Shown piece by piece: positions 15,994 through 45,683 of a stretch of DNA of 64,000 nucleotides; position 1 is the first letter of the stretch; each line of letters opens with the position of its first letter. Origin of the DNA: Williamsia sp. (GTDB taxonomy: Bacteria > Actinomycetota > Actinomycetes > Mycobacteriales > Mycobacteriaceae). The notes beneath the pieces were generated by a model. The model did no database searches. It was not told where the DNA came from and was given only the letters and a program-made list of their open reading frames with translations. Both the position numbers and the translations under genes were made by a program. The stretch is taken from assembly GCF_016462415.1 (NCBI RefSeq), contig NZ_JAEMTF010000003.1, positions 28,837 to 92,836 of the forward strand, written 5' to 3'.

Positions 15994-16096
15994 TGATTGA
16001 TACTCCTCAATTAACGAGTGTTCGCGATGCATATGAGTCAGGGAGGTGCAGGCGTGATGCTTGGCCTATGCGTTGATCCGTTGGATCAACGATCAG

Positions 16097-17641: not shown

Positions 17642-20600
17642 GTGCCTAGCGCGTCGACCGTGGACAACGGTCCGTCACCGAAACCATCGTCGAAGAAGTC
17701 GGCTGGGAGCGGCGAGTACAGCGCTCTGCTGGAGAAGTTGGCCTGGCTAGTCTTGCGGCGTAAGGGTGTCGTGGCATTGGTGTGGATCATCATCGCCGGT
17801 GGGCTTGCTCTGCTGTTTCCTCAGCTCGAGTCGGTGATCAGAGACCAGTCCGTGGACCCGATCCCGGCCAGCGTCCCGTCGTTCCAGACGCTCGACCGGA
17901 TGGGAACTGCGTTCAACGAGCGCGGCGCGAAGACCACCGTGTTCGTGGCCATGGAAAACAAGGGTGGACTGGACGCGGAAACGCGGGTCAAGTACGGCGA
18001 GATGGTGAAAGCGCTGAATGCCGATCGCGAGCACGTCATCGCTGTACGTGACCTCCTCGGTGATCGGCTCACCGAGAGTCAGGCGCTGAGCAGCGACAAG
18101 AAGGCGTGGTACTTGCCGGTTTCGCTGCAGGGAACGCTGGGTGGTCCGAAGGCCGCAGACTCCGTGGATTCGGTTCGCGAAGTCGCGGACCGAACCTTCG
18201 ACGGTTCCGGAACCACTGTGCGGATCACTGGCCCGCCGGCAACCTTCAGCGATCAAATCAAGGTGGGCGAATCGGATCTACTCGTGATCACCCTCGCCAC
18301 CGTATTCATGATCGCCGCGATTCTCTTTATCGTCTATCGATCGTTGTTCACCGCCGTGATGCCGCTGCTTGTGGTGGTGATGAGCCTCGCGGTAGGTCGG
18401 GGCGTCCTGTCCGGACTTGGTGAGATTGGTATGCCCGTATCCCAGTTCACCTCGATGTTCATGACGGTGATCATCTTCGGTGCAGGAGTGGACTACTCCG
18501 TGTTCCTGATAAGCAGATATCACGAGGCCATCCGCTCCGGCAGCACGCCAGATGTCGCGATTGCGCAGGCCAACGGGACCATCGGACGCGTGGTTTTGGC
18601 GTCGGCAGCGACTGTCGCCTTGGCGTTTCTGTCGATGGCGTTCGCGAAACTGAGCGTGTTCAGAACGCTGGGACCAGCGTGCGCAATCGCGATCTTAATC
18701 GGCTTCCTGGCAACAGTCACGTTGCTGCCTGCAGTGCTGTCATTTGCCGCGAAACATGGTGCGGGGCTGCCTCGCAGAGACTTGACGCGGCGATACTGGC
18801 ATCGCGTGGGGACCTTCGTCGTCAGGCGGCCGGTGCAACTCCTCGCCGTCAGTATCGTGGCGCTGATCGGCCTCAGTCTCATCGCAACCACTATGACGAT
18901 CACGTACGACGATCGAGAGGGTCAACCCGCCTCCACGGAGAGTAACGAGGGTTACGCCCTTCTCAACCGACACTTTCCCAAAGACACCATAATCTCCGAA
19001 TTCCTGATCGTGGAGTCCAAGAAGGACATGCGCACCGCTCAAGGTCTCGCCGATCTCGATCAGATGGCCTCGCGAGTCGCACAAACACCAGGAGTCACAC
19101 GGGTCATCGGCGTTACACGTCCGACCGGCGAGAAACTTCAGCAGGCCCAGTTGTCATGGCAGAACGATCAGATCGGCAACAAGATCACCGAGCAAACCGG
19201 AGGCGCACAAGCGCGCAAAGGTGACCTCGAACTCCTGAAGACGGGGTCCTCGCAGCTCGCAGGTGGCCTCGCACTTCTGAGTGACCAGATCACCACCAAT
19301 CTCGCGCCACTGGGAGGTCTGCTCGGTCAGGCCTCCGCCGCGGGCGGTCAACTCAGTCAGTACCGGCCGTTGGTGGACGAGCTCGCAAGCGCCGCACCAG
19401 CTCTCGACCAGTTCTCGCAACAGGCGCCACAGCTGGCGAGACTGGCTCGGCAGGCGCAGTCGGCAGCCAACACCGTCGCTCCCGCATTGGACGCGCTCGA
19501 CGCACCGTGGTGCCGGCAGATTCCCCAGTGTTCTGCCTTGCGGACCCAGACAGCCGACATTCGCTCACTTGCCGAGAACCAGTCGCTCACTCGATTCGCG
19601 GACTTCGCCACGAACCTCGGCGGGATCCGCGCGCCGGGCGCCGCGGATGTCGCACAGCTGCGGGACTCATTGAATGTCCTCGACTCCGCCTTACAGACCA
19701 TCAACGGCCAAGACCTCACCAGCCGGCTGTCCCAGCTCGAGACAGGAGTCGGCGCACTGGCCGACGGCGCCCGTCGATTGTCGGGTGGTGTGGCCGCTTT
19801 GGTGGACAGCAATGTGCAGTTGCTCGCAGGACTGTCGCAGGTGGCTGCGCAACTACGAGCGCCCGCCCGTGATATCGGCAACTCGGACTCGGCCACCGGC
19901 TTTTACCTTCCTGCCGACGCCTTCAAGGATCAGCAGTTCAGTCAGGTCGCAAAACAGTTCATCTCGCCGGACGGGAAGACTGTACGGTTCGCGGTACAGA
20001 CTGGTTACGATCCGTACACGGCTGATGCCATTCGCTTGGCGAACACGCTGTCAAAGGTTGCCGAAGGCGCGATGCCAAATACTTCTCTCGAGGGCGCCCG
20101 CGCTTCCGTGGCCGGATTCCCGGCCATCAACGCGGATGTCCAGCGTCTGCTTTCTTACGATTTCAAGTTATTGGGAATTGCCACCCTGCTCATCGTGGGG
20201 CTGATTCTGATGATTCTGCTGAGAGCTATCGTCGCACCCATCTATCTTCTCGCGACGGTGGTCCTCAATTATCTCGCCGCGCTCGGGATTGGGGTCCTAG
20301 TATTTCAAAACTTGCTCGGTGCTTCGATATCGTGGCCGGTTCCGCTGGTTTCGTTTATCGTTCTTGTGGCGGTGGGCGCGGACTACAACATGTTGCTGGT
20401 GTCGCGGCTACGCGAGGAGACTACGGACAGTGTTCGGCTCGGCGTGCTGCGGACCGTCGCCCACACTGGGTCCGTGATCACCTCAGCGGGATTGATTTTC
20501 GCTGCTAGCATGTTCGGGTTGGCCTTCGGGTCTATTGACGTCATGGTCCAGATCGGTGTAATTGTCGCGGCCGGACTTTTGATGGACACGTTCGTGGTTC

Positions 20601-20749
20601 GAACACTGGTTGTCCCTGCACTGGCAGTTCTGCTGGGCAAGGCGAGCTGGTGGCCGGGAAATATTGAGAGGCAGCACCACGAGCGCAGATTGATTAGACG
20701 GAAATGGGAAGTCCCAGTCGAAGAATTTATACTCTCGCGAGACCAGTGA
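17642..20749 (+). CDS. MMPL-family RND transporter
   Basis: 1035 aa with two 6-TM bundles, each ending in the MMPL signature (GAGVDYSVFLISRYHEA; GADYNMLLVSRLREE). A large coiled extracytoplasmic insert is also present. Confidence 0.9.
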   Translation: MPSASTVDNGPSPKPSSKKSAGSGEYSALLEKLAWLVLRRKGVVALVWIIIAGGLALLFPQLESVIRDQSVDPIPASVPSFQTLDRMGTAFNERGAKTTVFVAMENKGGLDAETRVKYGEMVKALNADREHVIAVRDLLGDRLTESQALSSDKKAWYLPVSLQGTLGGPKAADSVDSVREVADRTFDGSGTTVRITGPPATFSDQIKVGESDLLVITLATVFMIAAILFIVYRSLFTAVMPLLVVVMSLAVGRGVLSGLGEIGMPVSQFTSMFMTVIIFGAGVDYSVFLISRYHEAIRSGSTPDVAIAQANGTIGRVVLASAATVALAFLSMAFAKLSVFRTLGPACAIAILIGFLATVTLLPAVLSFAAKHGAGLPRRDLTRRYWHRVGTFVVRRPVQLLAVSIVALIGLSLIATTMTITYDDREGQPASTESNEGYALLNRHFPKDTIISEFLIVESKKDMRTAQGLADLDQMASRVAQTPGVTRVIGVTRPTGEKLQQAQLSWQNDQIGNKITEQTGGAQARKGDLELLKTGSSQLAGGLALLSDQITTNLAPLGGLLGQASAAGGQLSQYRPLVDELASAAPALDQFSQQAPQLARLARQAQSAANTVAPALDALDAPWCRQIPQCSALRTQTADIRSLAENQSLTRFADFATNLGGIRAPGAADVAQLRDSLNVLDSALQTINGQDLTSRLSQLETGVGALADGARRLSGGVAALVDSNVQLLAGLSQVAAQLRAPARDIGNSDSATGFYLPADAFKDQQFSQVAKQFISPDGKTVRFAVQTGYDPYTADAIRLANTLSKVAEGAMPNTSLEGARASVAGFPAINADVQRLLSYDFKLLGIATLLIVGLILMILLRAIVAPIYLLATVVLNYLAALGIGVLVFQNLLGASISWPVPLVSFIVLVAVGADYNMLLVSRLREETTDSVRLGVLRTVAHTGSVITSAGLIFAASMFGLAFGSIDVMVQIGVIVAAGLLMDTFVVRTLVVPALAVLLGKASWWPGNIERQHHERRLIRRKWEVPVEEFILSRDQ

Positions 20750-21499: not shown

Positions 21500-22888
21500 A
21501 TGAAGGTTTCTGACGTGATCACTGAGCGGGTTCAGTCCGCCCTCCCGATCGATCTACAAATCCATGGCGCGCACCTGTACGACAGGACCCGGCGGTGGGT
21601 GACCGGATCGAACGGGAAGAGGCTGTTCGTCGAAAGTCCCATCCCGCCGGTCGAGGAGGTCGAACTCGCCGATATCGACCTCAGCAACCCGTTCCTTTAT
21701 CGTCAGGGGCGCTGGCAGTCCTATTACGAGCGCCTCCGCAATGAGGCGCCCGTGCACTACCTGCCCGCCAGCCCGTTCGGTCCGTTCTGGTCGGTCACCC
21801 GACATGCCGACATCATGGCCGTCGACAAGAACCATGAGGTGTTCTCCGCCGAACCGCTGATCGTCATCGGGGTCCCGCCGCGCTTTCTGGACATCACCAT
21901 GTTCATCGCGATGGATCCGCCCCGCCACGACCGGCAGCGGGCCGCCGTCCAAGGCGTGGTCGCGCCGAAGAATCTCCGTGAGATGGAGGCGTTGATTCGA
22001 TCGCGCGTTCAGGAGGTGCTCGACGACCTCCCGCTGAACGAGCCTTTCGACTGGGTGCAAAACGTTTCGATCGAGTTGACCGCTCGAATGCTTGCCACAC
22101 TGCTGGACTTCCCGTACGAGCAACGTCACAAGCTCGTTGAGTGGTCCGATCTCGCAACGTCGATGGAGCAGACCAACGGCGGCCCCTCAGACCTCGACGA
22201 CACGTTCGACGGTATGCGTGAGATGGCCCAAGGTCTCAGCAAGCACTGGCACGACAAGGCGGCCCGGACCGCAGCCGGCGAGGAACCCGGATTCGATCTG
22301 ATCACCATGATGCAAAGCAACGCCGACACCAAAAACCTCATCGACCGACCGATGGAGTTCCTGGGCAACTTGGCATTGCTGATCGTCGGTGGCAACGACA
22401 CGACCCGCAACTCGATGAGCGGCGGTGTGCTCGCCTTGAACCGGTTCCCCGACCAGTTCGAGAAGCTGAAGGCAAACCCCGACCTGATTCCCAACATGAA
22501 CTCAGAGATCATCCGGTGGCAGACACCGGTGGCCTACATGCGCCGCATCGCCACGACCGACACGATGCTTAACGGGCAATTTATCCGCAAGGGCGACAAA
22601 GTCGTGATCTGGTACGCCTCGGGCAACCGCGACGAGCGCGTGTTCGATCGTCCGGACGACTTCATCATCGATCGCGCCAACGCCCGCAACCACATCTCAT
22701 TCGGCTTCGGTGTTCACCGCTGCATGGGCAACCGACTGGCCGAGCTGCAGCTGAAAATCCTCTGGGAAGAGCTGCTTCCTCGGTTCGAGAACATCGAGGT
22801 CATCGGCGAACCCGAGTACGTGCAGTCCAACTTTGTCAGAGGGATCAGCAAGATGATGGTTCGCCTCACCGCGAAATCGGACGCATGA
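21500..22888 (+). CDS. cytochrome P450, CYP153-like alkane/terminal hydroxylase
   Basis: Heme loop FGFGVHRCMGNRLAELQLKILWEE, I-helix LLIVGGNDTTRN, and N-terminal NPFLYRQGRWQSYYERLRNEAPVHY...FWSVTRHADIMAVDKNHEVFS. Together these strongly resemble CYP153A proteins. Confidence 0.9.
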   Translation: MKVSDVITERVQSALPIDLQIHGAHLYDRTRRWVTGSNGKRLFVESPIPPVEEVELADIDLSNPFLYRQGRWQSYYERLRNEAPVHYLPASPFGPFWSVTRHADIMAVDKNHEVFSAEPLIVIGVPPRFLDITMFIAMDPPRHDRQRAAVQGVVAPKNLREMEALIRSRVQEVLDDLPLNEPFDWVQNVSIELTARMLATLLDFPYEQRHKLVEWSDLATSMEQTNGGPSDLDDTFDGMREMAQGLSKHWHDKAARTAAGEEPGFDLITMMQSNADTKNLIDRPMEFLGNLALLIVGGNDTTRNSMSGGVLALNRFPDQFEKLKANPDLIPNMNSEIIRWQTPVAYMRRIATTDTMLNGQFIRKGDKVVIWYASGNRDERVFDRPDDFIIDRANARNHISFGFGVHRCMGNRLAELQLKILWEELLPRFENIEVIGEPEYVQSNFVRGISKMMVRLTAKSDA

Positions 22889-24087
22889 CACCTCGGCGAG
22901 CCGTCGTCATCGGGGCCAGCCATGCCGGAGCACAGCTCGTAGCCAGTCTGCGGCAGGAGGGGTGGGCCGACGAGATCGTCCTCAGCGGGGATGAGTCGGC
23001 GCTGCCCTATCAGCGTCCACCGCTCTCGAAGGCTTACCTCGCGGACAAGTGCGTACTGGACGACCTCGCGATCCGAAGCTCGGATTTCTACGTCAAGCAG
23101 GGGATCACTCTGCTCGATGCTTCGGTCGTGAGCATCGACCGCGCGGCTGGGCACGTCGTGTCGAAAGACGGCGAGACGATGTCCTACGACAAGCTCGCCA
23201 TCTGTACGGGCGCCCGGCCTCGTCGGCTCTCCGCCCCGGGAGCCGACCTGGCCGGCGTGTACTACCTGCGTACCGCGGCCGACGTCGCTGAGATCCGCGA
23301 GGCCGCGCGCCCCGGGCTGCGCGCGGTGATCGTCGGCGGTGGTTATATCGGACTGGAGACGGCAGCCTCCCTGCGCGCGCTCGGCGTGGAGGTCACCGTC
23401 CTCGAGGCGACCGGACGCGTTCTCGAGCGGGTGACCGCCCCTGAGGTCTCTGCGTTCTTCGAACAGATCCACCGGGCGGAAGGCGTCGATATCCGCACGG
23501 GTGCGCTGGTCGAAGCCCTCTCCGGGGATGACAGGGTCAGCGAGGTGGTCTTGGCCGGTGGTGAGTCGATTGCCGCCGACCTCGTCATCGTCGGTATCGG
23601 CGTGGAACCGAACATCGATCTGGCCGCTGACGCGGGCCTGGTCATCGACAACGGCATAGTCATCGATGATCACGCCCAGACCAGTGACCCGGACATCGTT
23701 GCCGCCGGGGACTGTGCCAGCCACGTCATGGCCCGCTACGGCCGGCGTATCCGGCTGGAGTCCGTGTCGAGTGCCCTGGAGCAAGCCAAGGCCGCCGCCG
23801 CCGCCATGTGTGGGAAGTCCAAGACAATCACGGCGCTGCCGTGGTTCTGGTCCGATCAATACGATCTCAAGCTCCAGATCGCCGGTCTCAACACCGGTTA
23901 CGACGAGGTCGTTCTCAGCGGAAGACCCGCCCTGGACCGCGGCTTCACCTGCTACTACCTACGCGGTGGCGAGCTGATTGCGGCGGACTGCATCAATCGT
24001 CCCCGCGACTTCATGTTGAGTAAACGGATAATCACGCAGCATCTCCCCGTCGACCGCGCCGAACTGGCACTCGCGGCTGCAACGTGA
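22885..24087 (+). CDS. FAD-dependent NAD(P)H:ferredoxin reductase (putidaredoxin-reductase type)
   Basis: Two Rossmann motifs (VVIGASHAG; VIVGGGYIGLE) and the GDCA motif (AAGDCAS). 4-nt overlap with the P450 stop. Confidence 0.9.
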   Translation: MTPRRAVVIGASHAGAQLVASLRQEGWADEIVLSGDESALPYQRPPLSKAYLADKCVLDDLAIRSSDFYVKQGITLLDASVVSIDRAAGHVVSKDGETMSYDKLAICTGARPRRLSAPGADLAGVYYLRTAADVAEIREAARPGLRAVIVGGGYIGLETAASLRALGVEVTVLEATGRVLERVTAPEVSAFFEQIHRAEGVDIRTGALVEALSGDDRVSEVVLAGGESIAADLVIVGIGVEPNIDLAADAGLVIDNGIVIDDHAQTSDPDIVAAGDCASHVMARYGRRIRLESVSSALEQAKAAAAAMCGKSKTITALPWFWSDQYDLKLQIAGLNTGYDEVVLSGRPALDRGFTCYYLRGGELIAADCINRPRDFMLSKRIITQHLPVDRAELALAAAT

Positions 24088-24326: not shown

Positions 24327-25391
24327 ATGCCCCACAAGACCCTCATCCAGGATTACCCGCATCAGATCGGGGGACACTGTGGTTCGGGCGCGATGCGAGA
24401 TCTGCTGCACTGGCACGGCCTGGGGTGGGACGGACCACCTAGCGAAGGGCTGGTATTCGCCCTCGGCGGCGCTCTGGGCTTGTCCTACGTCCGATCGAGC
24501 GCCCTCTTCCCACCGCTGTATCTGGTGGGACGAGGCGCCGACTTCGAAATCGACTTGCCCCGCCGGCTCGGTGGGCACGTCGAGGTCCTGACCACCGATG
24601 ATCCCCAGGAAGGATGGTCGTGGGTTCGCGACGACATCGATTCCGGTCGACCAAGCCTGGTGTGGGGCGACATCGCCGAGCTACCGTATCTGAGGGTCCA
24701 GATGCAGATGAGCCGCCACGACATCGTCGTGATCGGCTACGACGAGGACGCGCACGTAGCGTTCGTCGTGGACAACGACCGGGCCGACGTGCAATCGGTT
24801 CCCCTCGAATCGCTGGCTCGGGCCAGATCGTCGACGTCATTTCCAGAGCCGACGCGCCATTGCACATATCGCATTACCTGGCCGAGCGAGCTCCCCGCTA
24901 TCGGTGACATTGCAGCGGCAGCATTCCGACAGTCTGCCGAGAACTTGCGTCAGCCATCAGGGGCGAGCATCGCCGACCTCACCCCCGCGAGCGGTGCCGA
25001 GGGCTTGGCAGCCGCCGGAGCGCTGGCCGCCGACATCCACACCTGGACCGGCCTTCCCGACGGCGAAATTGAAATCCTACTGTTCGGCCTCGGCGCGTTC
25101 ATCGAGAAGGCAGGCACCGGTGGCGGATTATTCCGACGTCTCCTCGCCGAGGGGTGCGCTGAGATCGCAAGACTGACCGGCGACCCGGCCACAGCAGACC
25201 TCGCGCGAGTCGCCGACTGCTGTGCGCAGGTCTGGACCGAGACCGCGCGCGCAGGGATCCAACGCGACGTTGATGTGCGAGCCCGCCTGGACGCGGTGAT
25301 CCTGTCAGTGAATCGATTGCCCGAAGCCGAAGCGGATCTTGCCGAGGCCCTGGAACTTGCTTCCAGCTCATTGGCGACTGCAAACCGCTGA
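24327..25391 (+). CDS. BtrH N-terminal / DUF4872-like protein (papain-fold, peptidase-C39-like)
   Basis: N-terminus GGHCGSGAMRDLLHWHGLGW...GLVFALGG is the BtrH_N signature as I recall it. The C-terminal helical half resembles DUF4872. Confidence 0.6.
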   Translation: MPHKTLIQDYPHQIGGHCGSGAMRDLLHWHGLGWDGPPSEGLVFALGGALGLSYVRSSALFPPLYLVGRGADFEIDLPRRLGGHVEVLTTDDPQEGWSWVRDDIDSGRPSLVWGDIAELPYLRVQMQMSRHDIVVIGYDEDAHVAFVVDNDRADVQSVPLESLARARSSTSFPEPTRHCTYRITWPSELPAIGDIAAAAFRQSAENLRQPSGASIADLTPASGAEGLAAAGALAADIHTWTGLPDGEIEILLFGLGAFIEKAGTGGGLFRRLLAEGCAEIARLTGDPATADLARVADCCAQVWTETARAGIQRDVDVRARLDAVILSVNRLPEAEADLAEALELASSSLATANR

Positions 25392-26545: not shown

Positions 26546-27421
26546 ATGGGGGTTGAAATATCTAGCGTCGGCACAACCGCGGTCTTGGTGGCTCAGATGA
26601 GAGCGCTTGAGTCCGCTCGGACGGACCGCTTGTTCACGGATGAACTCGCCCACGAGCTGGTCACGGCTGCCGCCATGGGTATAGAGAACGTCACCCTGGA
26701 ACAGGTTGAGGGACAACGGGTTTACGTTTCAGTGTCGGTCCGTACTCACTACCTCGATGCATGGTGCAGCCAGCTACTCAGCCCCAACGCCATCCGGCAG
26801 GTCGTGATACTCGGCGCCGGCCTCGACACGCGCGCGATCCGTCTCAACTGGCTTGACGACGGTCTGTCGGTCTTCGAGATCGACCGCTCCGACGTCACGG
26901 AGCTGAAAGCGCAGGTGCTCGGAATCGATCCCGACGCTCGGTGGCGCGGTCTCGCGACTGATCTGGCAACAGAATCTTGGTCGGCAGAACTTCACGGTGC
27001 CGGGTTCGACCCGACTGCCCCGACGTTGTTCATCGCCGAGGGGTTGTTCATGTACCTGGATGACGTCGTCAGTACAGACATCATCGCCCAAATCGAGAAG
27101 CTGAGCGCTCCCGGCAGCCACCTGCTCGGTGTTCACTTCGGGCGCGGCGCGCTGATCGACGCTGAGACGCAGGCGATGTCAGCTGCGATCGGCAAGAACG
27201 GGTACGGCTTCGAGTCCGTAATCGACACGACGCCGGATAAGTGGCTCGGCGACTCCTGGGACGTCCTGAGCGCAACTTCGATAGCGCAATACGCTCCGAC
27301 CGTCGGGCGCAAGATCCCGTACGACGAAGACGCAATCGGAGCAGAGGTGACGTGGATGTTCGCAGCCTCGCTCAGTGCTGCGAAATCTCAAACATCATCC
27401 GATGGGTCACCACGGGCGTAG
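26546..27421 (+). CDS. class I SAM-dependent methyltransferase (TIGR00027 / leucine carboxyl MTase-like)
   Basis: TAVLVAQMRALES...D.LA lead-in and SAM motif VVILGAGLDTRAIRL, plus FIAEGLFMYL. This is typical of the mycobacterial putative O-methyltransferase family. Confidence 0.8.
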   Translation: MGVEISSVGTTAVLVAQMRALESARTDRLFTDELAHELVTAAAMGIENVTLEQVEGQRVYVSVSVRTHYLDAWCSQLLSPNAIRQVVILGAGLDTRAIRLNWLDDGLSVFEIDRSDVTELKAQVLGIDPDARWRGLATDLATESWSAELHGAGFDPTAPTLFIAEGLFMYLDDVVSTDIIAQIEKLSAPGSHLLGVHFGRGALIDAETQAMSAAIGKNGYGFESVIDTTPDKWLGDSWDVLSATSIAQYAPTVGRKIPYDEDAIGAEVTWMFAASLSAAKSQTSSDGSPRA

Positions 27422-28310
27422 CCGAGGCCCTCCAGCACTGAGCAAGATTCACGGGAACTCTGATGTCATCAAAGTGGTTTCGGTGCTGCGCGCTTCGTGA
27501 CCGCAGCCAACTGTCACTGAGTGCGGTCAGCAGCCGATACCGCTGCACCCGATCTACCAGCCTGATGACCTGGGGAACCATCAGCGCCGCGACCAGCAGC
27601 ACCGTGACCAGCGTCGTCAAACTGACGGCGATCAACGAACTCCCCTCGACATAGCTACTTGGAAAAACGTTCGGCGCCATGTGAACAACGAAGACCCGCA
27701 GAACGATGTGGATCGAAAACAGGATCGCTGTTACTGACGCGAGCCCGATCAGCACCATCATCGCTCGAATCGCACCAACAAATTCTGACGAGGCGCGTCC
27801 GATGAGCGCGATCGCCGCCACGCCGACCACCGCAATTGCGAGAGCGACGTACGCCCAGAAAATGGACTGCGAGAGGCTCGAGTCGAAGGCGTCAGGGAGG
27901 TAGCTGATCGGCCGGTTTCGCAAGTTGCTAGTCGCAAATGCCCCGAACAGCACGCCCCCCGTCATAGCCGCAAACCAGTGTGGCACTCGGGGATTGAATC
28001 CGTATCCGACGACCCAGGCAGTCGCCGGCACGCAGTACCCGAGTGCAAGGGTGGTGCTGGTGATCGTCAGGAAGTATGGAACGTTGTACCACCGCCCAGA
28101 GCCGTCGACTTCTTGGCTCAAGCCGTCGAAGAAATTCTCGATCACTGGGAGGTGAAGAAATCGTGCACACACAAACAGCACCAGCGCGATGCCGATCCAG
28201 TGGCCCCCCGACGTGGGCGAGGACCCCGGTCCTGACCGCGACAGCAATTTCACGCCGACCGCCAGAAGGACAAGGGCTCCGCACGTAGTCATCATGTCAA
28301 GCCAAAACAT
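27372..28310 (-). CDS. polytopic membrane protein (about 8 TM), possibly MAB_1171c-family
   Basis: Hydrophobic segments throughout, with a cytosolic C-terminal tail (VDRVQRYRLLTALSDSWLRSRSAQ). Its start shares one base with the ImmA-like stop (TGATG). The family name is from memory only. Confidence 0.55.
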   Translation of the reverse strand: MFWLDMMTTCGALVLLAVGVKLLSRSGPGSSPTSGGHWIGIALVLFVCARFLHLPVIENFFDGLSQEVDGSGRWYNVPYFLTITSTTLALGYCVPATAWVVGYGFNPRVPHWFAAMTGGVLFGAFATSNLRNRPISYLPDAFDSSLSQSIFWAYVALAIAVVGVAAIALIGRASSEFVGAIRAMMVLIGLASVTAILFSIHIVLRVFVVHMAPNVFPSSYVEGSSLIAVSLTTLVTVLLVAALMVPQVIRLVDRVQRYRLLTALSDSWLRSRSAQHRNHFDDIRVPVNLAQCWRASATPVVTHRMMFEISQH

Positions 28311-28945
28311 CAGAACATGCTCACAGCGACACAGTAGTAGCCAAATGTCCGCGCGATCCGATCAATCATCAAGGCGCCTCGGTCGTGACCTCTGCTCGCA
28401 GAAATCCGGGCCCGCTTCTCGTCAACTCTGGCCAGGACGATCGTTGCGAACCACTCCGCTTCTTGTTCTGCCCGTTCATAATCCGTCAACGGTGACAGAT
28501 CCGATGGGGCATGCGAGCCCGCCTTACACGCAAATGACCCCAGGTGTGATTCCACGATCGCCGGTGGCAGGGCACCGAGCCATCCAACCCAACGCTCGGG
28601 AGTGACGCGACGAGGGTGCCCCAGCAGAAGGTGACCCATTTCGTGCGCGATGACGTACCGGCGTTCGTCGGCCGACAGGTCGGCTACGAGGACAATCTCG
28701 TCGTAACCCTCGAGCGGCCATAGTTGTCCGGTTACGCCCTCGCCAAAGGTTGAATCATCGCGCGCCGTGACAACACGGATCGGGCGAGTGCGTCGCAACG
28801 ACTCGTCTACGACGAAGGAATCCGCAGTCCACATCGGACCAGGCGCGACTTCTCGAACCAGCGCCTCCGCAACGGCCATCGGCGTGGCGTTCGTTACTCG
28901 CCCCTCGCCTGTGCGCTCACGTGTTGAGCGCGGGACGAACCTCAT
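28310..28945 (-). CDS. ImmA/IrrE-family zinc metallopeptidase
   Basis: HEXXH motif VIAHEMGHLLLGH (about 28631-28651 on the minus strand). ATGA overlap with the upstream gene. Confidence 0.8.
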   Translation of the reverse strand: MRFVPRSTRERTGEGRVTNATPMAVAEALVREVAPGPMWTADSFVVDESLRRTRPIRVVTARDDSTFGEGVTGQLWPLEGYDEIVLVADLSADERRYVIAHEMGHLLLGHPRRVTPERWVGWLGALPPAIVESHLGSFACKAGSHAPSDLSPLTDYERAEQEAEWFATIVLARVDEKRARISASRGHDRGALMIDRIARTFGYYCVAVSMF

Positions 28946-29388
28946 GAGGCGAGGAGCGAAAGCCGTCCCGACGAGAACAGATAGGCACGATAGTCGCGAA
29001 GCTCAACTACTGACATCAGGGCAAACACCGGCAACCCATTTCCACCACGTGCATGCGGCATCCCCATGTTCCGAATGGACAAGAGAATCTCTGCCTGGAC
29101 CAGAGGCAGCAGGTAAGCCTCGGGATCATCTGACAACATCGACGTGTCGTCGTGCCACTGACACGCGTCCGCGTAGGCCCGCCGCTCACGTGCGCTAGGT
29201 ATCGACGCCCCATCGAGATGCGATTGCACCACTTCGGATTTGACCTCGAAACCTAACCCGCGAAGGCGCTCGGCAATCGCACCCGGATAGTCATCCGAGA
29301 TCCCAGGGGCGAGTGCGATCATGATTCGAAGGCGCGAACTCAGCGATTCAGATCTGCCGGCGGCGTCGAGTTGATCCATAGACGTCAT
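28942..29388 (-). CDS. hypothetical protein (148 aa) within the HTH/ImmA operon
   Basis: Intact ORF tightly packed between the HTH and ImmA genes. I recognise no motif. Confidence 0.5.
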   Translation of the reverse strand: MTSMDQLDAAGRSESLSSRLRIMIALAPGISDDYPGAIAERLRGLGFEVKSEVVQSHLDGASIPSARERRAYADACQWHDDTSMLSDDPEAYLLPLVQAEILLSIRNMGMPHARGGNGLPVFALMSVVELRDYRAYLFSSGRLSLLAS

Positions 29389-29397
29389 CTGCAGACC

Positions 29398-30189
29398 CTA
29401 GTGCGTCGCCACGCTGATAGCGCGCATCTTCCGGTCGAACCGATTCGAAAATCGCCCATCTGTGTCTTCTGCAATTCCGATTAGCCAACGGCGATATCTC
29501 TGGTCATCGCGTTGTTGCACTGTCGCATCATCGAACGGCACTTCATCTAGCAGGTACGGCCCGAACGCCGTTTGCAGGAATCCGGGAACGGTCCGACCCG
29601 GCCCCCCGAAACGTTCCAGCACCTCAGTCGCATGGGCGGCGCTGAGCTTGTGCGCGAACCGAATCAGTGCGGTCGCGACGTCAGCATCTACCGCGGCGCT
29701 GGGCGTCAGTCTCTGGATGAGGGCCAAGCCTTCGCGCAGCACATCAGCGGGAACCTCAACATAATTAAAGTCAAGCGCATCAGGCGGCGTCACGGACTGA
29801 CTCGCACGCCCGACGTCGTCACTTGCGATCACGGATTCAGAGTCTGACGACGAGCCGAGCGGTCCTGACGGTACCGGGGGCCGGAGGTCAAGACAGCCTG
29901 CAGCAGAACCGCGCTGCCACTGTAAGGCCGTGTCTAAGCGCTCCAGAGTGCTCGGTCGAGGGAACGCGGTCGACGCGGTCGGGCTCTCGATTCGCGCCAT
30001 GGTCGAATCCGATGGGCCGCCTGCTCGGCGTAGAGCATCCCTGGTGAGACCAAGAGTCCGTCGCCGCTCAACGACCGCATCAGCGAGGAATGCCAGCTGC
30101 GGCGGTATCTGATCGGGCACGGGCCTGAGTTTATCGCCCCGAGCCACGCGTCTTGAGTCACCGAAGCTTGTGGGTCCTCTAACCGTCAT
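29398..30189 (-). CDS. XRE-like helix-turn-helix regulator with a long C-terminal domain
   Basis: HTH segment FLADAVVERRRTLGLTRDALRRAGGPSDSTMARIES. First gene of the four-gene operon, divergent from the transfer block. Confidence 0.65.
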   Translation of the reverse strand: MTVRGPTSFGDSRRVARGDKLRPVPDQIPPQLAFLADAVVERRRTLGLTRDALRRAGGPSDSTMARIESPTASTAFPRPSTLERLDTALQWQRGSAAGCLDLRPPVPSGPLGSSSDSESVIASDDVGRASQSVTPPDALDFNYVEVPADVLREGLALIQRLTPSAAVDADVATALIRFAHKLSAAHATEVLERFGGPGRTVPGFLQTAFGPYLLDEVPFDDATVQQRDDQRYRRWLIGIAEDTDGRFSNRFDRKMRAISVATH

Positions 30190-30385
30190 AAAACCATCAT
30201 AATCGTTCGTGACGCCTCTTTCACCTGCATATGACCTTCGCCAGTCTTCGTCCTTGCACTTGTGATGTCTCTGTGACGTGTTAGCGTTCCCGTGAAGGTC
30301 TTACGACGTCCACTGAGAAGTCGGCGACTGCTCGGCGCACGAGCTACGAGCTACGAGCTACGCGACCGGGTTACCCAATGAACCC
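30190..30385. promoter_or_regulatory. divergent promoter region between the HTH/ImmA operon and the transfer operon
   Basis: 196-bp gap between divergently oriented first genes. It contains (CGAGCTA)x3 at 30340-30362. No -10/-35 elements were assigned. Confidence 0.3.
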
Positions 30386-31693
30386 TTGAGAGGAATCACT
30401 GTGTTGCAGAGCACCCGCTCACAAAAGGTGAAGTTGCCGCTAGTCGGATTTGCCATCACGCATGACACGCACTTCACACAGAAGCTGTTGGTGGCGAGCG
30501 TTGTCGCCGCTCTCGGGCTTGGATTGGCCGGTGCGGGAACGGCTGCTGGCGCTCCCGAAGACGACCAGGGCGGTGTCACCTCACCGTCCGTCTCGGGCGG
30601 AGACCAAGCCGGTGTGACGGGCGCACCCGACACCGGGCCCGGCGCGATTCCCGATCCCCCGCGAGAGGCCCCGTACCGGCCCATTCCGATTGACGACGGG
30701 CCGGTCTACAGCGGCCCCACCTACACCGACCCCGGCTACAACACCGAACCGGCCATCAACCAGTCGCCGGCACCGCGGGCGACGACCCAGCCCACCCCGT
30801 CTCCCAAGATTCGTCCCGGTGGACCGGTTCGGCCGATCCTTCCCCCGAAGGGGTACTTGCGGGTCGGCCGGTTCATCACCAAGGACACCGGTCCGCTGTC
30901 GCACGCGCAGGTCAACTCGATCAACCGGTACGCGGCCTATGGCGAGGCCAAGATCGCGCAGTCGCTGATCGCGGTTGGTGTGTCACCGCGTGAGGCGGAC
31001 CGGCAGGCTGCGTCCACGATCATCGGTGTCGTCGTCGGCGGCGGTGTCGGCGCGGCCACACTGGGTATCCCGCTGGCCGTTGTCGGTGGCCTGGGTGGTG
31101 CGGCGATCGGTGCCGGTATCGGCGCGTTGGTTCCGCCCACACCGTTCAACGCCGGTCCAGGTGCGCTGATCGGCGCAGGGTCCGGTGCCGTAGTGCTCGG
31201 ACTCGGGGGCGCCGCGGCTGGTGCCGGTATCGGCGGGACCATCGGCGGTGTCATTGGCTACATACTCGGTGCCGGTGACCCCAGGGCCCATCCGACGCTG
31301 CCGGGTCACGACCCGGCTCGGCCGCCGGCGCCGCTGCGTAAGGCTGCGCCATTGCTCAACCCTGGTGCGAACCGATATCAGCTGACGGTCGGTGATGAGG
31401 CGGGCCTCCCCGGGAGAGGCAAGGTCAGCTACGTCGTTGAAACCAACGGCGCGGTCGATCTCACGGCCACGATCGGTGGTCGTGACTTCCACGTCGGGTT
31501 GACAAAGGCCCAGGCCGAGGCCCCATTGAAGGCCCTCGGCGGAGCTGAGGCGCAGGCCCGTCATGCGATCGACGACGCCACGAAACGAATAAGTGACGCG
31601 GCGAATTCGCTTGCCGGGGTCCACGTGGAGTTCCCGCAGTTCGTCGCACCCCGTCACGCTGTGAACCCCCGCCATTCTGCGGCGCATCGGTAG
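30386..31693 (+). CDS. secreted/membrane protein with Pro-rich linker and glycine-zipper region
   Basis: Signal-like LLVASVVAALGLGLAGAGTAAGAP, a Pro-rich stretch, and a Gly-zipper block (IIGVVVGGGVGAATLGIPLAVVGGLGGAAIGAGIGAL...). The start is ambiguous (TTG 30386 or GTG 30401). Confidence 0.55.
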   Translation: MRGITVLQSTRSQKVKLPLVGFAITHDTHFTQKLLVASVVAALGLGLAGAGTAAGAPEDDQGGVTSPSVSGGDQAGVTGAPDTGPGAIPDPPREAPYRPIPIDDGPVYSGPTYTDPGYNTEPAINQSPAPRATTQPTPSPKIRPGGPVRPILPPKGYLRVGRFITKDTGPLSHAQVNSINRYAAYGEAKIAQSLIAVGVSPREADRQAASTIIGVVVGGGVGAATLGIPLAVVGGLGGAAIGAGIGALVPPTPFNAGPGALIGAGSGAVVLGLGGAAAGAGIGGTIGGVIGYILGAGDPRAHPTLPGHDPARPPAPLRKAAPLLNPGANRYQLTVGDEAGLPGRGKVSYVVETNGAVDLTATIGGRDFHVGLTKAQAEAPLKALGGAEAQARHAIDDATKRISDAANSLAGVHVEFPQFVAPRHAVNPRHSAAHR

Positions 31694-31706: not shown

Positions 31707-32579
31707 ATGGCTTATGGCTCCACCGACAATGGTCGCCGCCCCGCGCGACGACGAGCCACTCCTGCTGGCGAGGCGTTGCCTCGGCGGCGGGTGGCAGTCG
31801 TTGGGGCCGTACCAGGTTCGGCTCCTCAGCGGCCAGCTGCACCGCCGAGGGAGGTACTCAGACCAGTCACCGTGACTCCTGTTGTGCCCCCGCTGCTGTC
31901 ACCGTCTGCTGAGCCTGTCGAGATGTCCACCGCACCGATAGCGGCTCCCGCTGCGAGTCGTGCGCAGGGGGCGTCACGGCGGCGCAATAGACGCGCACTA
32001 TCGGTATCGCTGGGCAGCCTGCTGGTCCTCGTCGTGATCGGGATCATCGCTTCAGCGGGGCTGATCTCGCCGATGCTCGGTTCTCGGTCCGTCAATACCG
32101 CGATCGCCATTCCATCTGCTGACACCTCTGCCTCGATCGCGGCGAGTCCTATCACTTCCCCCGCCACCGCTCCGGCGGTCGCACCGTCTGCGCTGGTGCC
32201 AGGATGTCCGACGCTGGCCGATGGCCCGGTGTCCTCCGGGAACGATGCCGGCGGTCCGCGCGGCGGGGTCGAGGTCATCAAAGCGTTTCAGTTCGCCTAT
32301 TACGTCACCCGCTCCGCGGCCGCGGCACAGGCGTTTCAAGCACCGTCCGCCCGAAGGACCACGGTCACCAAGCTCCAGGGCTTCATCAACGCCGTCCCCG
32401 TCGGCACCACTCACTGCGTGGCGATCACCGATCGCGGCGCGGGGCTGTGGGCGGTCACCGTCAACGAGATGGTCCCCGGTCAGCCCCCGAACCTCTTCTA
32501 CCAACTCGCCAAGACCGCGGATGTGGGCGATAAGACCGTCATCACATCGGTGGCCAAAGACCCAATCGAAGGGAAGTGA
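31707..32579 (+). CDS. membrane-anchored hypothetical protein
   Basis: Arg/Pro-rich N-terminus, one TM (LSVSLGSLLVLVVIGIIASAGLI), and a C-terminal globular domain (VIKAFQFAYYVTRSAAAAQAF...). Confidence 0.55.
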   Translation: MAYGSTDNGRRPARRRATPAGEALPRRRVAVVGAVPGSAPQRPAAPPREVLRPVTVTPVVPPLLSPSAEPVEMSTAPIAAPAASRAQGASRRRNRRALSVSLGSLLVLVVIGIIASAGLISPMLGSRSVNTAIAIPSADTSASIAASPITSPATAPAVAPSALVPGCPTLADGPVSSGNDAGGPRGGVEVIKAFQFAYYVTRSAAAAQAFQAPSARRTTVTKLQGFINAVPVGTTHCVAITDRGAGLWAVTVNEMVPGQPPNLFYQLAKTADVGDKTVITSVAKDPIEGK

Positions 32580-32838: not shown

Positions 32839-34449
32839 ATGAATCTACCGCCCACCCTGCGGCTGCGAGCACCCCGTCGCCGCGTACGCCTGGGGCTGAC
32901 CGCTGTGAGTGTGTCGGCCGCGATCATCACCGCCGGGGCCGTGGTGCCGCAGACGGCGAGCGCAGCGTCATCGTGCCCACTGCTTCACGTGTTCGCGTTG
33001 CAGGGCACCACCGAGTCATCGACGACCACGAACTCTAAGGTCGACTCCGGGATGCTCTCGCAGGTCCTGATTCCCGTCGACAACGCGCTGCGATCGAACA
33101 AGACGCTCATTGATCGCGACTACGTTCCGTATCCGGCCAGCTTCGGTGGACGCGCCGGTGACAAGTCGACCGACACCTACACCCAGAGTGTCGAGACCGG
33201 AATCGCCAACACCAACAAGCTGATCAGCTCAGTGCACTCCAGCTGCCCGTCGACACGGGTGGCGATCATGGGCTATTCCCAGGGTGCGCACGTCGCGCAC
33301 AACGTCATCGCCAACATCGGGGCCGGCAAGGGCCCTATCCCCGCCGACATGTTCGCCGCCGGTGCGCTGTTTTCCGACCCCGTGCGCCAGCAAGGCGCAT
33401 CACTGTTCCCAGGTGCCCCCAATCAGATCAGCCCGGCCGCTGTCCCGGGCACCACCGGTGCAGCGGTGACCAAAGTAGCCGCCGACGCCCAGGTGCCCTC
33501 CACCGGAGGCGGTATCGCCCCGGTCCAGCCCGGGGAGACCGACACCCAGGGCTTCGGTGGAGTGTCGGGTCGTGTCACCAGCTTCTGCCAGACCGGCGAC
33601 CTGGCGTGCTCGGCGAGTGACTCCCCTGTCGTCAAGCTCGCCACCAACATCTCCGGGCAGCTCCACCTCGACCAGCAAGACCCCCAGCAGACGCTGATCG
33701 ACGTGGCGTTGGCGTTGGGCGGTACCGCGATCCGTTCCACAGCAACGATTGTCAACGACGACGTCCAGACCGGCGATGGCACCACCGCCGGATTGCAGTA
33801 CACCCCGCAGAAGACGTTGCTTTCCCGCGTCGCCGATGGCAGCGACCCGCAGGGCAGCGCCGATGTCGTCGGGGCGATGGTCAAGGTCGGGACGATCGCT
33901 TTCAACACCGGCGTCGCGATCGCGAAGAAGATCATCACCCCGGGCAATATCGCCGAGCTGGCAACTGTCGGTCTGGCCAATCCTGCTGCCGCGCTGATCC
34001 TTTTTGGTCAGAAGCTCGGCTCGGCAGCGCTGGAGATGTTGCCGCCGATCGGGGTCGACCAAATCCAGAGCATTTTCTTCAACGAGATCAGCCAGGACAT
34101 CACCGACAACAAGTCCCTGGTGAACATGGCCACCGACGTCAGGTACTGGAACACCGTGCGCCTGCACGGCTCCTACGCCTCGACCCCGGTCACCCCGACC
34201 GGCAAGGCCCCGACCGGCTTCGTCGCGCAGTGGCTCGAATCAGCCGTCAAGGACCTCGCCGACAATACCTCATTGGGCGGATCGACAGATTCACCGTCGA
34301 CGACCGACACCACGACGACGACGACCAGCTCTACTGCCCTGCCAGCCAGCAGTCCCGATCTCGCGCCTGCGTCGATCGGAAATGGAGCCGACGACCCGCG
34401 AACCACCTCGACGCCGGTCACCACAACAACGACCACCTCAGGGCAGTAG
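32839..34449 (+). CDS. secreted cutinase-family serine esterase with a large C-terminal extension
   Basis: Signal peptide (LGLTAVSVSAAIITAGAVVPQTASA), an early Cys (SSCPLLHVFALQGTTES) and the nucleophile motif GYSQGA (33271-33288). The Asp-containing C..GD..C element (FCQTGDLAC) is also present. A Thr-rich tail follows. Confidence 0.75.
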   Translation: MNLPPTLRLRAPRRRVRLGLTAVSVSAAIITAGAVVPQTASAASSCPLLHVFALQGTTESSTTTNSKVDSGMLSQVLIPVDNALRSNKTLIDRDYVPYPASFGGRAGDKSTDTYTQSVETGIANTNKLISSVHSSCPSTRVAIMGYSQGAHVAHNVIANIGAGKGPIPADMFAAGALFSDPVRQQGASLFPGAPNQISPAAVPGTTGAAVTKVAADAQVPSTGGGIAPVQPGETDTQGFGGVSGRVTSFCQTGDLACSASDSPVVKLATNISGQLHLDQQDPQQTLIDVALALGGTAIRSTATIVNDDVQTGDGTTAGLQYTPQKTLLSRVADGSDPQGSADVVGAMVKVGTIAFNTGVAIAKKIITPGNIAELATVGLANPAAALILFGQKLGSAALEMLPPIGVDQIQSIFFNEISQDITDNKSLVNMATDVRYWNTVRLHGSYASTPVTPTGKAPTGFVAQWLESAVKDLADNTSLGGSTDSPSTTDTTTTTTSSTALPASSPDLAPASIGNGADDPRTTSTPVTTTTTTSGQ

Positions 34450-35755: not shown

Positions 35756-36799
35756 ATGAACACCACGAAGAAAGCCGGTCTGGCTCTCGTCGCGGCTGTC
35801 ATGGCTGTGGTGATGCTGCTGGTGGTGTGGCTGGTCCAGGTCGACTCCGACAGCCAGACCACCGGCCAGACCGGGTTGTCGTCGGCGAAGCTCAAGCCCG
35901 GAACGGTACCGCCGGAGTTCGAGGCCGCGATCACCGCCGCGGGCTCGGTGTGCCCGGAGGTACCGGCACCGTTCATCGCCGCCCAGCTCGAGCAGGAATC
36001 GGGGTTCAACCCCAGAGCGGTGTCCCCGGCCGGTGCGCAGGGCATCGCCCAGTTCATGCCCGGAACCGCTGCAGCGTATGGACTGAGCGATCCGTTCGAT
36101 CCGATTGCCTCGATTGCTGCGCAAGGCCGCTACGACTGCACGATCGCAAAGAACATGAAGGCCAAGATCGCCTCCGGTGCGGTCAAAGGCGACGTCCTCG
36201 ACGTCATCAGCTGGTCTTACAACGCCGGCGAGGGTGCGGTGGTGCAGTACGGCGGCGAGCCCCCCTACGCCGAGACCATCGCCTATGCGAAGTCCATCAA
36301 GTCGAAGATGGCCAGATACACCCAGCCCGGGTCGACCTTCGGTGGTCCGGGCGTGGGCAAGGGCGGCAAGTACACCTACCGGCCCGGTGTCGACGAGGGC
36401 CAGCAGACCGTCGCGGCGTTGATGCAGTACCTCGGCATCACCTACGCCTGGGGCGGCGGCGATTTCAACGGCCCGACCAAAGGCATCCACGACGGCGGCG
36501 TGGCCGATGCACACGGTGACTACAACAAGGTCGGCTTCGACTGCTCAGGCGCGACGCAGTACGCACTCTTTCAGGGAACCAACGGACGAGTCCGATTGGG
36601 CCGCAACACACATGCCCAGAGCGGCGATGGGCGAGCTGTACCCATGAGCGACCTAAAGGCGGGTGACCTCATCTTGATGAACGGTGACGAACACGTGGGC
36701 CTGGCCCGCGGCGACGGAACAATGATCGAAGCCCCCGAATCCGGGGACGTCCTCAAAGTATCGAAGGTCCGCGACGGCCACGGGGTGCAAGTCCTGTGA
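35756..36799 (+). CDS. bifunctional lytic transglycosylase (SLT) / NlpC-P60 peptidoglycan hydrolase
   Basis: TM anchor, SLT catalytic region AAQLEQESGFNPRAVSPAGAQGIAQFMP, and an NlpC/P60 region YAWGGG...GFDCSGATQYAL...GDLILMNGDEHVGL. Confidence 0.9.
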   Translation: MNTTKKAGLALVAAVMAVVMLLVVWLVQVDSDSQTTGQTGLSSAKLKPGTVPPEFEAAITAAGSVCPEVPAPFIAAQLEQESGFNPRAVSPAGAQGIAQFMPGTAAAYGLSDPFDPIASIAAQGRYDCTIAKNMKAKIASGAVKGDVLDVISWSYNAGEGAVVQYGGEPPYAETIAYAKSIKSKMARYTQPGSTFGGPGVGKGGKYTYRPGVDEGQQTVAALMQYLGITYAWGGGDFNGPTKGIHDGGVADAHGDYNKVGFDCSGATQYALFQGTNGRVRLGRNTHAQSGDGRAVPMSDLKAGDLILMNGDEHVGLARGDGTMIEAPESGDVLKVSKVRDGHGVQVL

Positions 36800-45344: not shown

Positions 45345-45683
45345 ATGAACTGCGACAGGGTGGTTCTGCTTCAGCGCATTTCGACACACCACCAGCGCTC
45401 CCAGGGCAGCGGTCAGGGCCAGACAGTGCACCGCAAGGTCGCCGAACTGCTCGCCCGGATCCTCGCGACATGCGGGGATGACGCGCCCCTGGCCCGCTCC
45501 GCGGTCAGCGACGGGGCATTCACCCATCCCGACAGCGCGGTCCGGCACGAGCTGGCTGCGGTGCTGCGGAAGCTGAATCTGCCCCAGCACGCCTCACTCG
45601 CCCGGGTAGGGCGTGCTGCAAACGACCTCCTCGGCGCCCACCTGGTCGACAACGACCTCATGTCCCGACAGGAGCATCCATGA
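45345..45683 (+). CDS. hypothetical small protein
   Basis: ORF whose stop overlaps the coupling-protein start (ATGA at 45680-45683). The 5' end is uncertain, because an alternative frame (45296..) also looks partly coding. Confidence 0.4.
   Translation: MNCDRVVLLQRISTHHQRSQGSGQGQTVHRKVAELLARILATCGDDAPLARSAVSDGAFTHPDSAVRHELAAVLRKLNLPQHASLARVGRAANDLLGAHLVDNDLMSRQEHP

Follow-up and report, generated by a model that had tools for sequence, protein, structure and literature searches.

A 64,000-nucleotide stretch of the genome of Williamsia sp. (contig NZ_JAEMTF010000003.1, positions 28,837 to 92,836; the whole analysed stretch is called the window below) carries on its minus strand a four-gene operon that faces a block of conjugation genes. 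We conclude that this cassette is probably a switch of the ImmR/ImmA kind in a variant form, conserved across plasmids of the mycolata. A more specific reading, to which we give slightly less than an even chance, is that the cassette may be a conserved regulatory on/off switch at the head of the plasmid conjugation operon: a seven-transmembrane (7TM) protein would gate a protease, the protease would cleave a helix-turn-helix (HTH) repressor, and transfer would thereby be derepressed. The argument was built on the observed gene content, domain identities, catalytic-motif conservation, gene order, coupling and synteny. The genes, in the order of their transcription, are:

Gene 1, 29398-30189, minus strand: XRE-type HTH protein of 263 aa.
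Gene 2, 28942-29388, minus strand: diverged EspR-like HTH protein of 148 aa (very likely assignment).
Gene 3, 28310-28945, minus strand: putative zinc metalloprotease of the ImmA/IrrE/CapP type, 211 aa, with HEMGH motif.
Gene 4, 27372-28310, minus strand: 7TM protein of 312 aa, assigned by profile comparison to the MAB_1171c/DUF6545 superfamily.

The four-gene operon is real. An earlier, sequence-only reading of this DNA had described four coupled minus-strand genes, and both the list of open reading frames (ORFs) and the sequence agree with it: genes 1 and 2 are separated by 9 nt (29389-29397), genes 2 and 3 share a 4-nt ATGA overlap (28942-28945), and genes 3 and 4 overlap by 1 nt in TGATG (position 28310). 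The automatic gene calls on the window's contig were shortened, giving 144 aa for gene 1 and 293 aa for gene 4.

Relatives were collected by tblastn against plasmids and by one genome scan, and the resulting 33 loci (numbered L001 onwards) were analysed with local hidden Markov models of the four families. The complete cassette, in the same order and orientation, was present in the window and at 22 other loci, so that this window is not the only carrier of the module. Since these 22 loci keep the same families, order and orientation, the arrangement is beyond chance. Protein identity ranged from 20 to 60%, with the best relatives (about 60% identical) in Williamsia and Rhodococcus, and no near-identical DNA to the operon was matched among plasmids. 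At least seven genera were represented, namely Rhodococcus/Rhodococcoides, Williamsia, Nocardia, Gordonia, Dietzia, Antrihabitans and Cryobacterium. The EspR-like HTH gene lay directly upstream of the protease gene at all 23 four-gene loci, and most loci had an NTGA start/stop overlap between the protease and 7TM genes. A three-gene core made up of the EspR-like HTH, the ImmA-like protease and the DUF6545 protein, lacking gene 1, was found on plasmids of Mycobacterium avium, M. riyadhense, Tsukamurella, Mycolicibacterium and Streptomyces; the HTH gene was directly upstream of the protease gene at 4 of 6 such trio-only loci, the exceptions being L023, where it was divergently placed, and L026, where it was not detected. 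Two incomplete arrangements were also noted: a locus in an Acidimicrobiia metagenome-assembled genome ended after gene 1, and in L004 (Dietzia sp. oral taxon 368 plasmid) an IS1182 transposase (3004-4479) splits the operon between genes 1 and 2, with no methyltransferase after it.

The plus-strand genes that the operon faces in the window are:

30386-31693, plus strand: Gly-rich secreted or membrane protein, first ORF of the transfer block.
31707-32579, plus strand: 290-aa protein, second ORF of the transfer block.
32839-34449, plus strand: cutinase (Pfam Cutinase 1.7e-16).
35756-36799, plus strand: SLT and NlpC/P60 hydrolase (Pfam SLT, NlpC_P60).
45680-47473, plus strand: VirD4/TraG coupling protein (TraG-D_C 9e-33).

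The block extends over about 20 kb and also encodes a DUF4913 protein; a MobA/VirD2-type relaxase and a 2175-aa SNF2 helicase lie farther on. Judged by these domains it is a genuine conjugation block, and the proposal that the operon faces transfer genes was confirmed by the cutinase, SLT plus NlpC/P60, VirD4/TraG and relaxase genes found there. The Rhodococcus equi plasmid pRErm46 carries the same transfer gene set, and the same paper cites work in which the cutinase promotes conjugation of R. fascians pFiD188 (PMC6794481).

This neighbourhood recurs. The sequence-only reading had called for a survey of co-occurrence, and its outcome was positive: 15 of the 23 four-gene loci, the window included, were divergent from the block with cutinase, SLT/NlpC-P60 and p540 genes, while this was the case at none of the six three-gene loci (one-sided Fisher test, p=0.006, for loci that are not independent of one another). 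Thus the presence of gene 1 tracks adjacency to transfer genes, and because the loci are phylogenetically related this association is indicative only. Three four-gene loci were too short to judge (L007, L016 and L009, the last of which still shows one transfer-block gene). The adjacency was kept with the short membrane gene and with the long DUF6545 form (L019, L022, L024), and it was kept despite a change in the family of the methyltransferase that accompanies the cassette.

Gene 3 carries the signature of ImmA/IrrE/CapP zinc proteases. Pfam Peptidase_M78 matched it with 27.4 bits against a cut-off of 22, covering only residues 83-110. The sequence reads H101-E-M-G-H105...H110 followed by E160-Q-E-A-E-W-F-A, that is, the HExxH motif and the downstream helix with the third-ligand Glu that are expected in M78 proteins. 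In an alignment of eight sequences the invariant columns were H101, E102, H105, H110, C140, E160, A163, E164 and W165; across the homologous ORFs, HExxHxxxxH was found in 29/29 and the downstream E..AEWFA-type helix in 25/29 (regular-expression search). The best PDB match of the family profile was CapP (7t5t, E=4e-4), in which both motifs were aligned, the E160 helix to iEaqAdlFA; IrrE scored E=0.78. PADLOC returned capP (E=6e-6) and RmrA, and PHROGs returned phrog_87, a phage metallo-protease. The earlier naming of this gene as an ImmA/IrrE HEXXH protease is therefore borne out by the above-threshold M78 match and the conservation of both motifs. Neither a signal peptide nor a transmembrane segment was predicted, and the homologues, 150-190 aa long, consist of the protease core and carry no sensor domain. 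By these features gene 3 is a small, sensor-less core of a putative zinc metalloprotease of the ImmA/IrrE/CapP type (M78, COG2856-like). As it comprises only the protease core, sensing must lie elsewhere. In two relatives, L001 (Rhodococcus sp. NBC_00294 plasmid unnamed2, 5959-6555) and L002 (Cryobacterium pA26BH1, 5965-6579), an intact ImmA-like ORF has no coding sequence in the PLSDB gene tables, which are incomplete; for L001 the table gives a 186-bp ORF on the opposite strand instead.

The matches of gene 3 also bear on a different reading, according to which the cassette is an addiction module resembling toxin-antitoxin (TA) pairs of the Xre-COG2856 type, or a defence control pair like CapH/CapP, that stabilises the plasmid or controls an immune effector. 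The module is plasmid-borne, capP and RmrA were its only PADLOC matches, some Streptomyces homologues are named 'toxin' or 'regulator component' in RefSeq, and Xre-COG2856 pairs have been predicted to be TA-like (PMC2701414). However, Pfam, NCBIfam and PADLOC scans revealed no family of toxins or effectors in the operon, genes 1, 2 and 4 and the methyltransferase had no PADLOC match, and a 7TM partner and a position at the head of a transfer operon are foreign to TA and CBASS control pairs. No CBASS (cyclic-oligonucleotide-based antiphage signalling) or DNA-repair genes lie nearby; the cassette is flanked by transfer genes and by a methyltransferase gene. The authors of the TA prediction themselves concluded that the protease most likely cleaves the Xre repressor within a regulatory cascade (PMC2701414). 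We therefore see only a slim chance for addiction or defence.

The invariant, translationally coupled partner of the protease is the product of gene 4. The AlphaFold2 (AF2) model (pLDDT 91, pTM 0.85) is a compact bundle of seven transmembrane helices with a cytoplasmic helical tail, in place of the approximately eight helices counted before. The positive-inside rule puts the N-terminus outside and the C-terminus inside. An outside loop (about 52-76) is acidic and contains a short amphipathic helix, and the Arg-rich tail of about 60 residues (about 250-312) has conserved R254, R257, W268, W293, A295 and E308. Foldseek recovered generic 7TM bundles such as G-protein-coupled receptors (GPCRs) and rhodopsins at E>0.09, and no solved homologue; with nothing beyond these generic matches, GPCR or rhodopsin homology was rejected.

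The family of gene 4 was reached in steps. Neither the protein itself nor its close homologues had a direct match in Pfam or NCBIfam, and a HMMER search of 1.84e9 representative sequences recovered only 21 relatives. In the alignment of 21 family members (20 of these relatives plus the window protein), 12 matched NCBIfam NF042915, MAB_1171c_fam, with a best E=1.6e-15. In hhalign, the short gene 4 family aligned with the long DUF6545 proteins at 93% and E=3e-7 over 260 columns, including the cytoplasmic segment R..LR..W...HRM.VEI.DA; the profile of the window's own subfamily was negative in the same comparison, so that the broader family profile alone makes the connection. Gene 4 is about 80 residues shorter than DUF6545, whose C-terminal part it lacks, and by itself it matches neither NF042915 nor PF20182. 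Because it has no match and its subfamily profile is negative, we do not place it in the curated MAB_1171c/DUF6545 family. At the level of the superfamily, the hits of the short family, the hhalign result and the position after an ImmA-like gene agree, and on these grounds gene 4 counts among the short proteins of the MAB_1171c/DUF6545 superfamily. No paper on DUF6545 was found in a full-text literature search, and MAB_1171c appeared in one transposon screen, in which the M. abscessus mutant formed about 50% less biofilm and had altered minimum inhibitory concentrations (MICs) of cefoxitin and clarithromycin (PMC8707978).

That phenotype, and the family name MAB_1171c 'putative transporter', might suggest that gene 4 serves in transport or in exclusion/immunity, that the protease processes this membrane protein or another one of the envelope, and that the HTH proteins are plain autoregulators free of proteolytic control. 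We consider this very improbable. The seven-helix bundle of the AF2 model has no internal repeat and no transporter-like match, the protease has neither signal peptide nor transmembrane segment, and the constant HTH gene directly upstream of it is the ImmR/ImmA pattern.

The operon encodes two candidate repressors. For gene 1, Pfam HTH_31 gave E=4e-4 with 21 bits, below the cut-off of 27 bits. The family profile matched XRE HTH structures, including DBP48 (1.5e-6), the phage immunity repressor 8bny and CapH 7t5u, and Foldseek with the HTH domain returned C.Esp1396I, ClgR and DdrO (TMt ~0.7). Profile, AF2 model and Foldseek thus agree on the five-helix HTH fold of XRE/Cro-C1 proteins, and the XRE-like designation that gene 1 had received is upheld. 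In the AF2 model (pLDDT 77.6 overall, about 95 in the HTH domain 30-110), a disordered stretch 1-24 is followed by the HTH domain (about 30-110), a disordered linker (111-136) and a helical C-terminal domain (about 145-262). The latter is family-specific, with T188, L191-E192-R193 and Y232-R-R-W-L-x-G invariant in the family alignment, and had no match in Foldseek. As modelled, this architecture of HTH, flexible linker and C-terminal domain is typical of cleavable repressors, and linker 111-136 is the predicted cut site. Gene 1 also matched phrog_6288, an actinophage family of unknown function, over the HTH domain only (E=2.7e-15), and the L003 homologue matched it along most of its length. 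A solitary relative of the YRRWL type was seen in one Rhodococcus chromosome, and tandem pairs of gene 1 relatives directly after an Lsr2 gene were seen in metagenome contigs.

Gene 2 had been regarded as a 148-aa protein of unknown kind and as a small extra added to the repressor-protease pair. It is not an orphan. Profiles of the proteins in the same position at other loci matched M. tuberculosis EspR structures over their full length (E=1.4e-9 and 2e-10). The window subfamily was linked to these positional homologues in hhalign at 96.5% (E=8.6e-10), and these in turn to the EspR group at 98.9% (E=2.9e-17). With the EspR sequence as phmmer query, the proteins at the position of gene 2 were recovered from M. 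riyadhense (5e-23) and M. avium (3e-21 to 4e-21). No match was obtained when gene 2 alone and its close subfamily were compared with the PDB, or when gene 2 and its close homologues were scanned with Pfam and NCBIfam. We regard it as very likely, from these profile links, that gene 2 encodes a diverged EspR-like two-domain HTH protein. Gene 2 is then the second HTH of the cassette and part of the three-gene core, and it is the 263-aa gene 1 that appears as the add-on.

The targets of these HTH proteins would be expected between gene 1 and the transfer block:

30190-30385, between the two divergent genes: control region with a -35/-10-like pair, a conserved motif and tandem repeats.

The 196 bp given in the sequence-only reading is correct as the distance from the ATG of gene 1 (30189) to the first possible divergent start, TTG 30386. 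Yet the divergent gene more likely begins at GTG 30401, behind the Shine-Dalgarno-like GAGAGGAA (30388-30395), in which case the spacer measures 211 bp; the product from GTG 30401 would begin closer to a hydrophobic signal-like segment. A -35/-10-like pair precedes gene 1 (GTGAAA 30224-30219, TATGAT 30201-30196) and ends 6 nt before the ATG. Taken alone it was not significant, the promoter scan having found 1 site where 0.8 were expected. An alignment of six upstream regions revealed conservation of the start-codon column and of the -10 position, and the start of gene 1 at ATG 30189 is supported by the sequence comparison. A leaderless gene 1 mRNA is suggested because the conserved -10-like hexamer lies 6 nt upstream of the conserved start codon. 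The same alignment showed TAACACGT(C/T)A in 5/6 regions, about 85 nt upstream of gene 1. The window copy is TAACACGTCA (30274-30283, minus strand), and four relatives have the motif at the same position. Three tandem CGAGCTA heptamers (30339-30362) stand just upstream of the likely ribosome-binding site of the divergent gene. Both TAACACGTCA and the CGAGCTA repeats are candidate operator or promoter elements. Terminator-like matches inside the operon were not above the shuffled expectation.

From these components a sequence of events can be proposed, in which we infer that DNA is bound at this region, which protein is cleaved, in which direction regulation runs and what kind of signal is perceived. 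The divergent control region would be occupied by one or both HTH proteins, which would keep the transfer operon in one state and probably regulate their own operon as well. The repressor may be gene 1, with its linker between the HTH and an oligomerisation-like C-terminal domain, or the EspR-like gene 2; the latter is more likely the primary partner of the protease, because the ancient trio holds that HTH alone. Protease and 7TM protein are presumably made in a fixed proportion since their genes are translationally coupled, and the sensor-less protease would presumably be controlled by the Arg-rich cytoplasmic tail of the 7TM protein. On perception of an envelope or lipophilic cue by the 7TM protein, the protease may be released or activated. 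It might then separate the DNA-binding part of an HTH protein from the oligomerisation part by a cut, which would derepress the transfer genes. We favour such an ImmR/ImmA-like switch with 7TM input because the protease motifs are intact and unaccompanied by a sensor, the coupled 7TM partner is invariant, an HTH gene lies upstream, and the relatives of the protease cut repressors.

Several observations weigh against this switch, some of them touching its parts and others its link to conjugation. Gene 3 resembles M78 proteins in the two motifs only, a whole-domain match was not reached, and the motifs lie about 25 residues farther apart than in CapP. Compared directly with EspR in hhalign, the window gene 2 subfamily gave a weak result (prob 7.5%, E=0.005, same register); the link of gene 2 to EspR is thus transitive and positional, since the window protein alone matches nothing. 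Relatives of gene 1 also stand singly or as tandem copies that lack a neighbouring protease gene (L030-L033), so that gene 1 is not necessarily the protease substrate. With a single copy in the window, TAACACGTYA is no more frequent than a 10-mer would be by chance, so that its weight comes from its conservation; a search for a repeated operator gave none. Five four-gene loci (L004, L005, L006, L013 and L020) had no transfer genes in the sequence examined, and among the trio-only loci adjoining transfer genes were 0 of 6. Across Actinomycetota the core trio is widely distributed and in most cases lies away from transfer genes, and since P450 or methyltransferase genes often come after it, its native output may be a different one. 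The adjacency to the transfer block could be inherited synteny of the plasmid backbone and not functional coupling. Among public sequencing runs, none was of RNA with this sequence (there were two low-share runs of DNA or unknown type only).

On the other side of the cassette lies the following gene:

26546-27421, plus strand: S-adenosylmethionine-dependent methyltransferase (LCM/TIGR00027; Pfam LCM 5.5e-42, TIGR00027 1e-51).

This gene is convergent with the operon, its 3' end overlaps gene 4 by 50 nt, and it is part of the conserved block. Its best PDB matches were ML2640 and Rv0731c, neither of which has a known substrate. A methyltransferase gene was located directly 3' of the 7TM gene at 19 of the 23 four-gene loci, usually convergent and overlapping, and three unrelated families fill the slot: LCM/TIGR00027 in the window and 10 others, the integral-membrane ICMT/PEMT type in the R. 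fascians group, and Methyltransf_12, which follows directly in L022 and after a P450 in L019 and L024. Such non-homologous replacement within one slot suggests that methylation is functionally tied to the cassette. A P450 gene directly followed the DUF6545 gene, often with overlapping start and stop, in L021, L025, L028, L019 and L024 (Mycobacterium, Streptomyces, Nocardia, Antrihabitans); in the M. riyadhense trio locus the P450 is followed by a methyltransferase. These P450 neighbours give hints of a small-molecule link for the three-gene core.

It may therefore be asked whether the cassette senses or regulates the adjacent small-molecule or lipid chemistry (methyltransferase, P450) and not conjugation, its position next to the transfer genes being backbone synteny. 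The 7TM protein would then sense a hydrophobic compound, and the protease-HTH pair would switch the modifying enzymes at the tail end. Filling of the methyltransferase slot by three families speaks for it, as do the trio-only loci of M. avium, M. riyadhense and Streptomyces that run straight into a P450, and the string of P450, ferredoxin reductase (FdR), BtrH, thioesterase and methyltransferase genes that converges on the cassette in the window. However, the methyltransferase is convergent and not co-transcribed in the window and in most four-gene loci, and gene 1 co-occurs specifically with the transfer block (15/23 vs 0/6). On balance we hold both the chemical role and the particular sensing scheme to be unlikely. 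They are in any case compatible with the switch of conjugation favoured above, for the signal gating transfer could be produced or broken down by the enzyme.

The distribution of the trio led us to a broader view. We infer that genes 2-3-4 are an ancient, general-purpose actinobacterial signalling trio and that gene 1 is an adaptor coupling it to transfer genes. Taken further, the trio might be a previously unrecognised and widespread actinobacterial transmembrane system, a 'split BlaR1' with a 7TM receptor gating a repressor-cleaving protease, which gene 1 couples to conjugation on mycolata plasmids and for which the methyltransferase or P450 makes or destroys a lipophilic signal, giving a pheromone- or quorum-like control of transfer. 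We regard this extended version as rather improbable; if it were true, EspR-type regulators in general may undergo proteolytic control.

Compared with characterised systems, the cassette is closest in layout to ImmR/ImmA. In ICEBs1, transfer is controlled by cleavage of the repressor (PMC6540685), and Xre-COG2856 pairs have been described as protease-repressor circuits (PMC2701414). The characterised protease relatives ImmA, IrrE and CapP all cut an adjacent XRE-type repressor (PMC6540685, PMC2701414; for CapP, the structure match 7t5t). As in ICEBs1, the window has, on a conjugative element and beside transfer genes, an HTH gene coupled to and directly upstream of a gene for a small HExxH (M78/COG2856) protease; the phrog_87 match of gene 3 adds a likeness to phage ImmA-like anti-repressors. 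However, the cassette differs from ImmR/ImmA in having two HTH proteins, one of them EspR-like and not ImmR-like, in its invariant third partner, which is a 7TM protein and not RapI or RecA, and in the limitation of the M78 similarity to the catalytic motifs. Its element is an actinobacterial plasmid with a type IV secretion system (T4SS)-like apparatus.

With CapH/CapP and DdrO/IrrE the cassette would share the principle that an XRE repressor is cut by a protease in the C-terminal part, CapP being also the best structure match of gene 3. CapP and IrrE respond to DNA damage and possess a GAF-like sensor domain at the C-terminus, whereas gene 3 (211 aa; homologues 150-190 aa) is too short for a second domain. 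Conceptually closest, with no homology shown, are BlaR1/BlaI and MecR1/MecI, where a transmembrane sensor controls a cytoplasmic HExxH protease and thus the cleavage of a repressor. BlaR1 combines sensor and protease (M56) in one polypeptide and has an extracellular penicillin-binding domain. In the cassette, by contrast, the proposed sensor and the protease are encoded by separate coupled genes and the 7TM bundle has no large outside domain. The proteins at the position of gene 2 match both domains of EspR (Rv3849), the window copy being very diverged. EspR is a chromosomal nucleoid-associated regulator, and to our knowledge neither an ImmA-like protease nor a DUF6545 protein has been reported as its partner. 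Gene 4 resembles the MAB_1171c (NF042915)/DUF6545 (PF20182) proteins in being placed after an ImmA-like gene.

Literature searches returned nothing describing the four-gene cassette, and those for ImmA in actinobacteria and for Rv3850/EspR gave nothing relevant; RefSeq names its parts one by one, using 'ImmA/IrrE family metallo-endopeptidase', 'toxin', 'MAB_1171c family putative transporter' and 'hypothetical protein'. No description of how T4SS-like conjugative plasmids are controlled in Rhodococcus, Nocardia, Gordonia and related mycolata was found in the literature, and a review of conjugation control in Gram-positive bacteria makes no mention of Rhodococcus or Mycobacterium. Such plasmids carry virulence, antibiotic-resistance and catabolic genes, and the cassette is a candidate master switch of their transfer. 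It also places the DUF6545/MAB_1171c family (Mycobacterium, Streptomyces, Nocardia) in a functional context for the first time and ties EspR-type regulators to a protease partner. If it is true that the 7TM protein gates the protease, this would be a new membrane or chemical input for ImmA-type anti-repressors, which are known to be triggered by DNA damage and by RapI.

The left half of the window (1186-25391) is a cargo region, in which the following genes were recognised:

6955-7989: MlaD-type gene of a Mce-like transporter.
7999-8865: MlaE gene of the Mce-like transporter, to which other genes also belong.
14476-16032: flavin-containing or Baeyer-Villiger monooxygenase (FMO/BVMO)-like protein.
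16097-17065: AurF-like N-oxygenase.
17642-20749: MmpL.
21500-22888: P450, with its reductase at 22885-24087.
24327-25391: BtrH-like/DUF4872 protein.

The same region also encodes a TetR regulator, an alpha/beta hydrolase, a ferredoxin reductase-type protein and a short-chain dehydrogenase/reductase (SDR). At the other end of the window, the relaxase gene is flanked by genes for a Schlafen/AlbA_2-domain protein (51162-52511) and for the 2175-aa SNF2/helicase giant (57424-63951, minus strand). Large helicase proteins of such a kind are typical of actinobacterial conjugative plasmids, and the 108-kb contig fits a plasmid.

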